Positions 836 through 4,414 of a stretch of 24,334 bases of DNA are shown here, piece after piece. The stretch covers positions 1-24,334 of the forward strand of contig CAJYIL010000166.1 in assembly GCA_913774795.1 (NCBI GenBank), read 5' to 3'. Below the pieces are notes generated by a model. The model worked only from the letters and a program-made list of their open reading frames with translations, was not told the DNA's origin and made no database searches. The position numbers were made by a program, and so were the translations under genes. The first letter of the stretch is position 1. Every line of letters starts with the position of its first letter. The DNA is from Pseudobdellovibrionaceae bacterium. GTDB taxonomy: Bacteria; Bdellovibrionota; Bdellovibrionia; Bdellovibrionales; JAMPXM01.

Positions 836-2062
836 ATGAAACTCACCGGACTCTTTTTATCGCTCGTTCTCGCTGCCCAAATCTCTCAAGCACGTCTTCT
901 TGATTCAAAAGTAGTTCTCAAAGCCTCTGAGCTTAAAGGACAAACCTACTTCTCGCTTATGAAAGAAAAGGTGAAGCCCGAGCTCGACGCTTTCGCGACC
1001 GACGGCTTCTCGCCCGTGAGCGGCCACGAAGCGGTCGGCGTTCTTGAAAACGTGGGTAAAAAAGTCAGCTCCGGCGTCATGCGCGCAGCCAAAGATCGCG
1101 ACACGTTGGCCGCCGTCGCCAACGCACTCAACGGCGAAATGGTTACATTCTACGATCTGCCTGCGGCGATCGCGAAAGTCGACCGCGGCGTATCTCGCTA
1201 CGATCTCACGACTTACCTGGCTCTCGCGAGCGGCGCGGGTGTCGCAATCGAGATCGATGAAAACAACACGTTCTACAATGTGAACTACGGAACGGGTGCC
1301 GTCGAAAAAGATGAGATGACCGGTCGCTCATTTAGCGAAACGCCGCTCCATAGGGCCGATGACATCTCCGACAAATCTTATTTAAAGGGCCTTGAAGACC
1401 TCGTCGCCGGCGAAGTGTTCCAAAAAGATTTCTTCTCAGTTGTTATGCAAGGTCTCGTGAACAGCGATTTCTCGGGCTACAAAAAACTCTCGGATCTCGG
1501 GCAGTCGGTCGCGACGGACTTCTTCGCCATCTACACAGCGGAACAAGATCGTCACTTGATGGCGAATCTGAGAAATCACGCTTGGGATGTCGCGCTTCTC
1601 GAAGTGACGCTCATCTCGAGTCTCCACGGTGGCCAAGAGAAAATCGCGCTTCTCGTTCAAGGCGAGATGAAAGATGTCGTTCTCAATCAGGTTCGCTGCG
1701 GTCAATCCGACGGCAAGACTCGCGACGCTTCGCTGATCGACTACTGGCAATTCACGACGAACCCAGATCCGAAATCGTGCGGGCGAAGCGGTATCAATAT
1801 TACGAAGCGTGACTTCCGTGCCCTCGGTCTTGCGATCTCGAAGTACGAGCGCGAACACAACCCCGAGTTGGTTGCAAACGTCGAGCGCCATTTCACGGGC
1901 CGCAAGAATGCAAACGTCTTTGCGGGATTGTCGGCGTACTTGATCAGCTACGATGCGCCTCGCGCAATGGGCCGCGAAGGTCAACAGCTCGTCAAAGACG
2001 TTTTGGCTTTCTTGGAGCAAGTGCACGCCGACGCAAACGAAATTACTCAAGCAACTCATTAA
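836..2062 (+). CDS. Hypothetical secreted protein, 408 aa
   Basis: Long ORF with a GAAGGA SD upstream, a Sec-type signal peptide (MKLTGLFLSLVLAAQISQA) and a terminator directly after the stop. I recognise no domain. Confidence 0.88.
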   Translation: MKLTGLFLSLVLAAQISQARLLDSKVVLKASELKGQTYFSLMKEKVKPELDAFATDGFSPVSGHEAVGVLENVGKKVSSGVMRAAKDRDTLAAVANALNGEMVTFYDLPAAIAKVDRGVSRYDLTTYLALASGAGVAIEIDENNTFYNVNYGTGAVEKDEMTGRSFSETPLHRADDISDKSYLKGLEDLVAGEVFQKDFFSVVMQGLVNSDFSGYKKLSDLGQSVATDFFAIYTAEQDRHLMANLRNHAWDVALLEVTLISSLHGGQEKIALLVQGEMKDVVLNQVRCGQSDGKTRDASLIDYWQFTTNPDPKSCGRSGINITKRDFRALGLAISKYEREHNPELVANVERHFTGRKNANVFAGLSAYLISYDAPRAMGREGQQLVKDVLAFLEQVHADANEITQATH

Positions 2063-2076
2063 TCATCAGAGGGTGG

Positions 2077-2122
2077 GGCCCGCGTGCTTTGTGTGTGAGA
2101 CAAAGCACGCGGGCCTTTTTTT
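2077..2122 (+). terminator. Rho-independent terminator
   Basis: Perfect 16-bp stem GGCCCGCGTGCTTTGT (2077-2092) / ACAAAGCACGCGGGCC (2100-2115), 7-nt loop, then T7. It begins 14 nt after the stop of 836..2062. Confidence 0.92.
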
Positions 2123-3185
2123 ATTTCAGCTCACGCTTCGCTTTCATTCGCGCCGTGCCTTCGGCGCCAATCTTTTTCCAGCGCTCTTTCTCGGCCTTCG
2201 CGAACGCTTTATCGATCTTCCTTAGACCGAATCGCACTTCCGCCTGAAGCTTCAGATAATTCGACCACCGGCCGAGATCGAGTGAGCCGGCCGCCAACGC
2301 GTGTTTGACCGCGCAGCCGGGTTCGGTCCCATGAGCGCAATCTCCGAACCGACATTGAGCGATCAAGTCTTCGACTTCTGCGAACTGAGTCGAGACTCCT
2401 TCGGCATGGTCGGCGAGTTGGAGCTCGCGCATACCCGGCGTATCGATGATCAATCCTCCGTACCTCGAAACGAACAATCCTCGCGACGTCGTCGTGTGTT
2501 TGCCGCGATCGTCGTGAGCTCTGACCTCACGCGTGGACTGCCGTGCCGTCGTAATCAAATGGTTCACGAGGGTCGATTTTCCGACTCCGCTTGAACCAAC
2601 GAAAACGCTCGTCGAACCCGGTCGCAAGAGGCGGGCAAAAAAGCCGGCTTCATCGAAGCGATCAGAAGCAACGCTGTAAACGTCGACGCCCGAAAACGAC
2701 CGTGCCATCGTAAGAGCGATCCCGTCGGGATCGTTCACGAGATCGGCTTTGGTAAGAAGTAGGACGGGCGTGCAGCCAGACTCATGCACCATCGCGAAAT
2801 ACCGCTCGAGCCGTCGCTCGTTCAGATCATTGTTCATGGAAGTCGTAACGAAGACCGTGTCGACGTTGGCGGCCAGAATCTGCAGGTCGTGCGAGGAACC
2901 GATCTGTTTTCGCTGTAAAAGCGTCCGACGCGGCAAAATCCCATGGATGACGGCTCGGTCGCCGAAGGCGATCTGGACCCAGTCACCGACCGCCGGAAAT
3001 GACTCCCGTCCGCGTGATTCGTGCATCATCCGGCCGCTGACGACCGCCGGCCGTTCTTCCGTCATTGAGAGTTGAACTCGGTATAAACCTCGCTCTTCGC
3101 CGATGACCCGCGCGGGCGTCAGGCCGGGCGCGAGCTCACCCGAAAAGCCGTAAAAATCCAAGAATTCGCCAAGCGAATTGGACAT
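2121..3185 (-). CDS. rsgA: Ribosome small subunit-dependent GTPase A (circularly permuted GTPase)
   Basis: Permuted motif order G4 (TKAD), G1 (GSSGVGKST), G2 (HTTT), G3 (DTPG). C-terminal Zn site CRFGDCAHGTEPGC and an N-terminal OB-fold-like region. SD AAAAGGAG at 3198-3191. Confidence 0.96.
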   Translation of the reverse strand: MSNSLGEFLDFYGFSGELAPGLTPARVIGEERGLYRVQLSMTEERPAVVSGRMMHESRGRESFPAVGDWVQIAFGDRAVIHGILPRRTLLQRKQIGSSHDLQILAANVDTVFVTTSMNNDLNERRLERYFAMVHESGCTPVLLLTKADLVNDPDGIALTMARSFSGVDVYSVASDRFDEAGFFARLLRPGSTSVFVGSSGVGKSTLVNHLITTARQSTREVRAHDDRGKHTTTSRGLFVSRYGGLIIDTPGMRELQLADHAEGVSTQFAEVEDLIAQCRFGDCAHGTEPGCAVKHALAAGSLDLGRWSNYLKLQAEVRFGLRKIDKAFAKAEKERWKKIGAEGTARMKAKRELK

Positions 3186-3190
3186 TGGAA

Positions 3191-3222
3191 CTCCTTTTAA
3201 GTTTTTTAGAAAAGAAAGGAGG
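3191..3222 (-). promoter_or_regulatory. SD-sequestering hairpin upstream of rsgA (anti-SD CUCCUUU / SD AAAGGAG)
   Basis: Plus-strand CTCCTTT (3191-3197) and AAAGGAG (3215-3221) are perfect inverted repeats. On the rsgA mRNA the 3' arm is the rsgA ribosome-binding site. Confidence 0.55.
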
Positions 3223-3224
3223 GC

Positions 3225-3278
3225 TTAAGCCGCGAAAAGCGCGCAGAGGCCCTGAGAAACGACGTTTGCTACCATCAT
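3225..3278 (-). CDS. Putative leader peptide (uORF) MMVANVVSQGLCALFAA upstream of rsgA
   Basis: AAGGAGG (3290-3284), a 5-nt spacer, ATG ATG, and TAA at 3227-3225. The uORF ends 39 nt before the rsgA ATG and 3 nt before the anti-SD arm. Confidence 0.55.
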   Translation of the reverse strand: MMVANVVSQGLCALFAA

Positions 3279-3490
3279 AAGAGCCTCCTTGAAGCGGGTG
3301 ATGGGACCAATGTATCCGGGTTCCCGAAGCCCCGCAAGACGGGTACCCCGCGTGCGCGTGAAGGATTTCCCGAAAGTGTTGCGATCTCGCAAACTTCCAC
3401 GGCAGAAATTTTCTTGCTTGAACGGAGTCCATTGCGTTCGTTGGACGGCAGGCGTATCCACTCCAGCACACAATCGAAGGATCTCACGAC

Positions 3491-4414
3491 ATGCGTCTCG
3501 CCATAGCGGGTTTGTTTTTTATTTTCGCCGGCGCTGCCCAAGCGCTTCCGTCCCCAGCTCTTCAACGCCTGATCGATCGCACCAGTGACAAGAACATCAC
3601 GTTTTTCCACACAGTCGAAAAGCAATCGACGCGCAACTGCCCGAAGGGTCGCACATTCATCACTGGCAAAGAGCCTTGGACGGGTGAAAAGCGCGACATC
3701 CTCTTAAACGAGTATGAAGCCACGGGCTCGACTCGCGCGATCATCATCATGCCGCCAACCGGTGGCGAGAACATCGTCGATCAGTACTATGCGAATCAGT
3801 TTTGCTCGAAAGGCATTCGCGCCGTGATCGTGAATAACTTCGAGATGTTTCCGGAGAGCGGCGTTGACTTGAAAATGTACGACATCGAAGCGCTTCGCTC
3901 GCTCGCGGCGATTCGTCAAACAGCGGAGTATTTGAGCCGTACGGGTACGAAGTCGATCGGCCTTATCGGAACATCGCTCGGCGCTCTTCAGGGTTCGCTT
4001 GGTGTCATGGTCGATGATCGCATCAACGTCGCCACTTTCATCGTTGGCGGAATGGGCTTAGCGCAAATCGTGGCGGCGTCAGAAGAGCCTGAACAAGCGC
4101 AGCTTCGCAAACTTCGGATGGACATGTGGAAGCTCGATCAGAAGCAATACGCCGAGAAAGTTCGTCAGGCGATCCATGTCGACACGTTCGCGTTCGAGGA
4201 CGATGCGACTCTCAAAGATCGCAAGAAGGTGATGTCGATCATCGCGATCGGCGATACGTATGTCCCGACTGAAAATCAGATGCGACTTTACCGCGTGTGG
4301 GGAACTCAGCCGAAGATCACGATGGTGCGTCCTCATGTCGATACGGTCATGCGTTCCGCGCTCATGCATGCGACCGAGATCTACACGTTCATGAACAACA
4401 ACTTGATCCCTTAA
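3491..4414 (+). CDS. Secreted alpha/beta-fold hydrolase (putative esterase/lipase)
   Basis: Signal peptide (MRLAIAGLFFIFAGAAQA) and nucleophile elbow GTSLG. Candidate Asp (GDTYVP), His (RPH) and oxyanion region (MPPTGG). GAAGGA SD upstream. Confidence 0.85.
   Translation: MRLAIAGLFFIFAGAAQALPSPALQRLIDRTSDKNITFFHTVEKQSTRNCPKGRTFITGKEPWTGEKRDILLNEYEATGSTRAIIIMPPTGGENIVDQYYANQFCSKGIRAVIVNNFEMFPESGVDLKMYDIEALRSLAAIRQTAEYLSRTGTKSIGLIGTSLGALQGSLGVMVDDRINVATFIVGGMGLAQIVAASEEPEQAQLRKLRMDMWKLDQKQYAEKVRQAIHVDTFAFEDDATLKDRKKVMSIIAIGDTYVPTENQMRLYRVWGTQPKITMVRPHVDTVMRSALMHATEIYTFMNNNLIP

Follow-up and report, generated by a model that had tools for sequence, protein, structure and literature searches.

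A conserved mRNA leader with an upstream ORF and competing helices appears to gate translation of rsgA in Bdellovibrionota

RsgA is a GTPase of 30S subunit assembly. In the window, that is, the whole stretch of 24,334 nucleotides analysed here, a gap of 305 nt separates rsgA from a divergent gene for a secreted-protein-like product (3491-4414, plus strand). The original prediction for this gap was that a short upstream ORF (uORF) and mutually exclusive pairings gate the Shine-Dalgarno sequence (SD) of rsgA. The question is hence whether the DNA upstream of rsgA is such a control element, and what it would respond to. We find that the approximately 120 bases upstream of the gene appear to be a conserved mRNA leader, in which a uORF and competing helices hide or expose the rsgA SD.

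The identity of the gene was established by profile searches. Its product matches PF03193 (RsgA_GTPase) with 155 bits (2e-45, cutoff 30) and TIGR00157 with 160.6 bits against a cutoff of 100. The RsgA type that goes with the leader is the sole RsgA in the window's own genome (G000, a 789-contig Bdellovibrionota assembly) as well as in G201 and G424. Downstream of the gene, a strong 18-bp hairpin with flanking A and T runs (2075-2117), located between rsgA and the convergent gene 836-2062 (plus strand), is probably a bidirectional terminator.

Reading the sequence directly, we found the leader elements on the minus strand where the original prediction had placed them: the SD of the uORF (SD1), the uORF, the pyrimidine tract, the rsgA SD (SD2) and the rsgA AUG are all correctly positioned. 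A single distance had to be amended, as the tract follows the TAA stop by 2 nt and not by 3. The features are as follows:

3332..3337, minus strand: putative -35 hexamer TTGCGG, placed by positional homology to the promoters of relatives.
3309..3314, minus strand: putative -10 hexamer TACATT, with a 17-nt spacer as in the nearest relative, L029 (TTGCGA-17-TAGATT).
3180..3296, minus strand: whole-leader match to covariance model R2, from the covariance search.
3280..3290, minus strand: SD1 and segment 1 taken together, from the sequence and the minimum-energy fold.
3290-3284, minus strand: SD1, AAGGAGG, followed by a 5-nt spacer to the uORF ATG.
3288-3280, minus strand: segment 1, GGAGGCUCU, comprising SD1 and spacer; 5' strand of helix P1.
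3278-3225, minus strand: uORF, MMVANVVSQGLCALFAA, 17 codons including the TAA stop (3227-3225), from the sequence.
3253-3245, minus strand: segment 2, AGGGCCUCU, uORF codons 9-12, pairing with segment 1 (P1) or with segment 3.
3244-3229, minus strand: local hairpin formed by uORF codons 12-16; the helix between segments 2 and 3 (the 2:3 helix) stacks on it.
3224-3215, minus strand: segment 3, GCCCUCCUUU; its GCCC pairs with segment 2 and its CUCCUUU is the anti-SD for rsgA.
3222-3215, minus strand: pyrimidine tract, CCUCCUUU, 2 nt after the TAA.
3198-3191, minus strand: SD2, AAAAGGAG, the rsgA SD, segment 4 and 3' strand of helix P2, from the sequence and the fold.
3185-3183, minus strand: rsgA start codon ATG, from the sequence.
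2121..3185, minus strand: rsgA coding sequence, 354 aa, from Pfam and NCBIfam.

In the minimum-energy fold of the window leader, GGAGGCUCU (3288-3280) is paired with AGGGCCUCU (3253-3245), forming P1, and CUCCUUU (3221-3215) with AAAGGAG (3197-3191), forming P2; the latter is the pairing of tract and rsgA SD already proposed. As its competitor, a pairing of the same tract with SD1 (AAGGAGG/CCUCCUU) had been put forward. This pairing is peculiar to the window. The conserved alternative helix, 2:3, corresponds instead to the short pairing that had been mentioned third, AGGGC/GCCCU. In the window, this helix consists of GGGC (3252-3249) paired with GCCC (3224-3221), only 4-5 bp. There, the 2:3 and P2 pairings are both present and share just 1-4 bases, the overlap being clear in relatives. 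The overall fold energy of the window leader was not below that of shuffled sequences (z of -0.94 and -0.40). An 82-aa ORF (3225-3473) that contains the uORF frame was also considered and rejected: it has no Pfam match, it overlaps the promoter region, and what relatives have kept is the ATG of the short frame with its SD. Within the initiation footprint at the rsgA AUG (AUG2), codons 3-8 of rsgA contain a 7-bp hairpin (AAUUCGC/GCGAAUU, window 3163-3179, minus strand), and a hairpin (UUCC/GGAA) occupies this position in L029 and the core group too. It may add to the control of initiation or may merely reflect conserved residues.

Promoters of the type TTGAC(N)-17-TA(NNN)T lie 25-57 nt upstream of the uORF start codon (AUG1) in 22/35 leaders. 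A consensus promoter scan of window positions 2000-3700 called none; the window promoter was assigned later by its position, and it is weak (7/12 consensus matches). Transcription is predicted from these hexamers to start near 3302. Attenuation at an intrinsic transcription terminator was rejected, as there is no G+C-rich hairpin followed by a U run between uORF and rsgA. No terminator-like site was found between 3190 and 3225, and P2 is A+U-rich.

We then come to the conservation of the leader. Comparing the upstream regions of orthologous rsgA genes had been suggested as a check on the uORF, on the distance from its stop to the anti-SD and on covarying pairings. The uORF is conserved: the same layout precedes about 24 of the 31 rsgA orthologues with at least 48% identity, in several families of Bdellovibrionota, and about 7 orthologues of this identity class are without it. 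Below approximately 47% identity no leader is found, and most genomes of the window's own family are among these. The layout also precedes rsgA in all eight true matches (8/8) of a metagenome pattern scan. From 5' to 3' it comprises a promoter, often a 5' hairpin, an invariant GGAGG, 5-7 nt, an ATG, a uORF of 13-20 codons and a segment that pairs with SD2. The distance from stop to anti-SD shows no conservation, being 2 nt in the window and L029 and approximately 25-45 nt in most other leaders, in which a further hairpin spans the stop codon; the local hairpin at 3244-3229 is the counterpart of that hairpin in the window. L029, whose RsgA is 65% identical to that of the window, shares the short form and has other letters in its anti-SD, which still pairs.

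A first covariance model, R1, drew on 12 core leaders and was too narrow: it detected neither the window nor its genome, and a second model was therefore needed. R2, built only from relatives with the window left out, finds the window at 3180-3296 with 25.9 bits (E 0.0011 among loci). When R2 was run against the window's own genome, the window leader was the only match (E 0.018), and neither R2 nor a scan for a strong SD, a short ORF and a footprint effect gave a convincing second copy in G000. The feature is thus more than a chance arrangement; it is a real conserved leader. Three R2 matches (L152, L153 and L156) were judged false positives, and two metagenome pattern matches (L163 and L164) are chance matches within coding sequence. 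A scan of genome contigs by RsgA alignment returned mostly other phyla, with L033 and L034 as the only loci of use for the family.

RsgA of the window is up to 60% identical to RsgA of other families and 40-47% identical to that of most members of its own family, most of which have no leader. As the window protein is closer to those of other families than to most of its own, the comparison suggests that there are two clades of RsgA and that the unit formed by leader and gene was differentially lost or was transferred. As a separate observation, a PF03193 search found no RsgA at all in the complete genome G072 (L154, L172), and the rsgA match in G034 (L008) has two stop codons; because of these two cases, rsgA seems dispensable in some members of that genus. 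In other phyla, uORFs with a strong SD often precede the same RsgA subfamily (L035-L112) and their peptides are conserved among related taxa: four in Acidobacteriota (17 codons), two in Actinomycetota, three in Planococcus, and those of cyanobacteria (approximately 30 codons). Their position before the same subfamily suggests that uORF control of rsgA is widespread across phyla.

Several features suggest indirectly that the short frame is read. GGAGG of SD1 is invariant in 29/29 aligned leaders, and an invariant ATG follows it by 5-7 nt, which is an optimal spacing. The frame of AUG1 is open for 13-20 codons in 34/34 leaders, which had been chosen partly for having a uORF, and the other two frames are broken early, often before codon 10, in 23/34 and 13/34 leaders. 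From this pattern we infer that the uORF is translated. The encoded peptides have in common only (K/Q)(G/S)L, which is accounted for by RNA pairing, and no conserved arrest motif is evident because the peptides share little beyond what the pairing dictates.

Across the family, four segments recur: SD1 with its spacer, uORF codons 8-11, a segment after the uORF and the rsgA SD region. Segments 2, 3 and 4 are typically AAGGGCCUUC, AAGGCCCUUAAGU and ACUUAAGG. Segments 1 and 2 form P1 and segments 3 and 4 form P2, and the alternative 2:3 helix shares bases with both; most leaders have the additional hairpin across the uORF stop. In the alignment of 29 leaders (A8), the closed structure is 87.6% paired and 18 pairs are changed on both sides, pair counts that are inflated because the alignment was fitted to that same structure; its covariation score is 0.249 versus 0.129 for shuffled alignments (0/500). 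The 2:3 helix, which is absent from the model, is 85.8% paired and scores 0.152 versus 0.115 (0/500). In six sequences a G-C pair of this helix is replaced by A-U: a G-to-A change in segment 2, which converts a Gly codon to Ser, is matched by C-to-U in segment 3. Divergent leaders keep the pairings with other letters, as in L029 (CCUUAAGU with ACUUAAGG), in L030 (a 13-nt arm) and in L140 (GAGAGCUCCA). Three mutually exclusive duplexes formed by overlapping segments are present in 23/24 leaders, with mean energies of -15.5, -16.2 and -11.2 kcal/mol (24 leaders). Compensatory changes seen in the aligned sequences support all three helices, P1, P2 and 2:3, which answers the question of covarying pairings in relatives.

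To see what a ribosome on the uORF would do to these helices, we folded 24 leaders by partition function with the ribosome footprint forced unpaired and took the cost of opening SD2 through AUG2 as the readout. Equilibrium unpaired probabilities alone show a modest switch, and opening free energies are more informative. Without a ribosome, opening SD2 costs 7.9 kcal/mol on average. With a ribosome at AUG1 the cost is 4.8 kcal/mol (decreased in 21/24 leaders); it is 5.9 kcal/mol with the ribosome at codon 3, 8.8-8.9 kcal/mol at codons 6-12 and 7.8 kcal/mol at the last uORF codon. The effect of the AUG1 footprint has a mean of 3.1 kcal/mol and becomes -0.2 after shuffling of the 5' part. Folding with and without a simulated footprint had been another of the checks proposed at the outset; real leaders show an effect of the footprint and shuffled controls do not. 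SD1 is itself masked, its opening costing 8.3 kcal/mol on average and 11.5 in the window; behind a leading ribosome that covers segment 2, the cost falls to 5.2 kcal/mol.

In the window, the cost of opening SD2 falls from 6.9 kcal/mol for the leader alone to 4.3 when a ribosome occupies AUG1 and to 3.2 when one occupies the uORF stop; the footprint effect of the window, 2.7 kcal/mol, compares with 0.0 +/- 1.2 in shuffled sequences and was reached by 0/20 shuffles. As the 2:3 helix of the window barely overlaps P2, sharing a single base with it, a ribosome at AUG1 weakens P2 only partly, and the minimum-energy fold with the ribosome at that place retains 6 bp of P2. As the uORF ends next to the anti-SD, SD2 would be opened fully by a ribosome that terminates there. 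The original prediction had included the arrival of the ribosome at the stop codon next to the anti-SD, and in the window it is indeed this step that opens SD2 most. According to these folds, arrival at the uORF stop is the stronger effect in the window, and in the family occupancy of the start site matters more.

These same values bear on the possibility that the leader is a constitutive translational coupler without sensing, in which the uORF would serve only to let its translating or terminating ribosome unwind P2 and bring ribosomes to a poorly accessible rsgA start, and P1 would set a fixed low level of expression. SD2 of the window and of L029 opens most readily when the ribosome sits at the uORF stop (3.2 and 4.4 kcal/mol), as such a coupler would have it, and the coupler would also account for the lack of a conserved arrest peptide. 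However, most leaders have 25-45 nt between the stop and segment 3, and placing a ribosome at their stop leaves SD2 closed (7.8 versus 7.9 kcal/mol). A coupler moreover needs no 2:3 helix, yet this helix is conserved with compensatory changes. We consider it an unlikely explanation.

The leader family is not confined to rsgA. It also precedes genes for RimJ-like GNAT proteins (Pfam Acetyltransf_3) in at least three lineages, with leaders in G001 (the window's genus), G140 and G072, and is found upstream of about 10/15 members of that GNAT clade (loci L168-L182):

L147:1501-1640, minus strand: GNAT leader.
L151:1501-1654, plus strand: GNAT leader.
L154, approximately 1540-1600, minus strand: GNAT leader.

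The best NCBIfam match of these GNATs is the S5-alanine acetyltransferase, far below cutoff. A second GNAT clade (identity of 46% or less) has no leader. Relatives of the GNAT fold can modify antibiotics. For RimJ, a part in the biogenesis of the 30S subunit is documented (PMC2440530). The association thus fits a reading in terms of 30S maturation and one in terms of translation stress or antibiotics alike. Two of the GNAT loci have peculiarities of their own. At L169 (leader approximately 1420-1530), the frame runs on upstream of the first ATG or GTG and an AUU follows the SD, so the gene may have a non-canonical start codon. At L154, the first leader uORF is followed downstream by a second one of 19 codons (1389-1440, minus strand), which overlaps the start codon of the GNAT gene (ATG inside ..TATGCGTAG).

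That the genes concerned act on the 30S subunit, and that segment 3 of the window equals the 3'-terminal motif of 16S rRNA, could also point to an RNA that binds a protein or ligand, with RsgA, in an autoregulatory loop, or a ribosomal protein recognising the rRNA-like CCUCCUUU/GGCC and the uORF being incidental. But CCUCCUUU is not conserved, relatives using CCUUAAGU and others, and the invariant spacing of ATG and GGAGG together with the constraint on a frame of 13-20 codons argues for translation. The same leader, moreover, stands before an unrelated protein family, the GNATs, and a search of Rfam 15 with window positions 2900-3800, both strands, gave zero matches at E up to 10. A binding RNA is accordingly, in our judgement, quite improbable. 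Still less credible is a chance arrangement or decaying remnant without function in the window's genome: the shortened form, the low family-model score (25.9 bits), the weak promoter and the patchy distribution in its own family would agree with it, but SD1, uORF, P1, P2 and the GGGC:GCCC pairing are all intact, L029 shares the short form with an anti-SD of different letters that still pairs, and the footprint effect of the window lies above 20/20 shuffles.

The reading that we favour is that the window leader is a uORF-dependent translational attenuator, a short-form member of a conserved Bdellovibrionota family, and we hold this to be probable. The core of the original prediction, a uORF with mutually exclusive pairings that gate the rsgA SD, finds strong support in the conservation of the layout, in compensatory changes and in footprint folds, across more than 30 leaders of relatives. 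Under this attenuator model, window positions 3302-3183 (minus strand) would be the 5' leader of the rsgA mRNA. In the absence of a ribosome, P1 would hide SD1 by means of uORF codons 8-11 and P2 would hide the rsgA SD, both cistrons being closed. A ribosome on SD1 and AUG1, during initiation or on the first 2-3 codons, would free segment 2, which could then pair with segment 3 and compete with P2, and the rsgA SD would open. Once the ribosome has moved on to cover segment 2, P2 would close again and SD1 would be exposed for the next ribosome. With the stop 2 nt from the anti-SD, as in the window and L029, the terminating ribosome would in addition melt P2 directly (translational coupling). 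From the folding we infer that rsgA output would follow ribosome occupancy of the uORF start. Candidate modulators of this occupancy are inhibitors that arrest ribosomes at the start codon, 30S subunits that are immature or slow, and the general capacity for initiation.

A more specific proposal, which we advance tentatively and with some doubt, is that the leader measures, in cis, how competent 30S subunits are for initiation, and so governs a small homeostatic 30S-maturation regulon. Segment 1 would be held by subunits that bind the strong SD1 but leave the uORF start slowly; these could be immature 30S particles, building up when RsgA or S5 acetylation limits, or drug-arrested initiation complexes. 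With segment 1 held, SD2 would be open and more RsgA would be made and, at the other loci, more RimJ-like acetyltransferase.

Comparison with known systems places the leader as a variant of leader-peptide translational attenuation of the erm/cat layout. This layout had been part of the original prediction, and its parts (a uORF with its own SD, a sequestered SD2 and alternative helices) are all present. As in ermC, ermB, cat-86 and cmlA, four mutually exclusive segments accompany a uORF with its own SD, the downstream SD is sequestered, relief depends on the position of the ribosome on the leader, and there is no terminator. In erm and cat leaders the segment that senses is part of the leader ORF, and arrest requires the drug together with a specific nascent peptide. 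In the rsgA leader, by contrast, segment 1 is SD1 with its spacer, so that segment 2 would be freed only by a ribosome at the start or on the first codons; the uORF peptides are not conserved. The targets differ too, a 30S-assembly GTPase and RimJ-like GNATs instead of resistance methylases and acetylases of known drugs.

The nearest functional analogue is the toiL uORF of the E. coli topAI-yjhQ transcript. Tetracycline is reported to arrest ribosomes at its start codon and to de-repress translation, occupancy of the uORF altering the pairing that occludes the downstream ribosome-binding site (PMC12121999). The two have no sequence relation, and toiL regulation is tied to Rho termination inside topAI, at a toxin-antitoxin locus of enterobacteria; unlike in toiL, SD1 itself is one arm of the switch in the rsgA leader. 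A ribosome-associated GTPase gene under a ribosome-sensing leader is also found in Listeria, in the rli80 leader of hflXr (PMC6310831). That leader controls its gene through transcription attenuation in response to lincomycin and erythromycin, and HflXr differs from RsgA in that it splits ribosomes. Unlike rli80, the rsgA leader has no terminator and its GTPase is the sole housekeeping RsgA.

A literature search found no description of an rsgA leader, which is apparently undescribed, and turned up no dedicated cis-regulation of bacterial ribosome-assembly GTPases. We likewise know of no report of such regulation. If the leader reads occupancy of the uORF start, it would connect, in a directly testable way, the condition of the translation machinery with the provision of 30S maturation factors. 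The predicted control would cover the sole rsgA of Bdellovibrio-like predators as well as RimJ-like acetyltransferases, and the attenuator would be of a design that uses the Shine-Dalgarno sequence of the uORF itself as its sensing arm.
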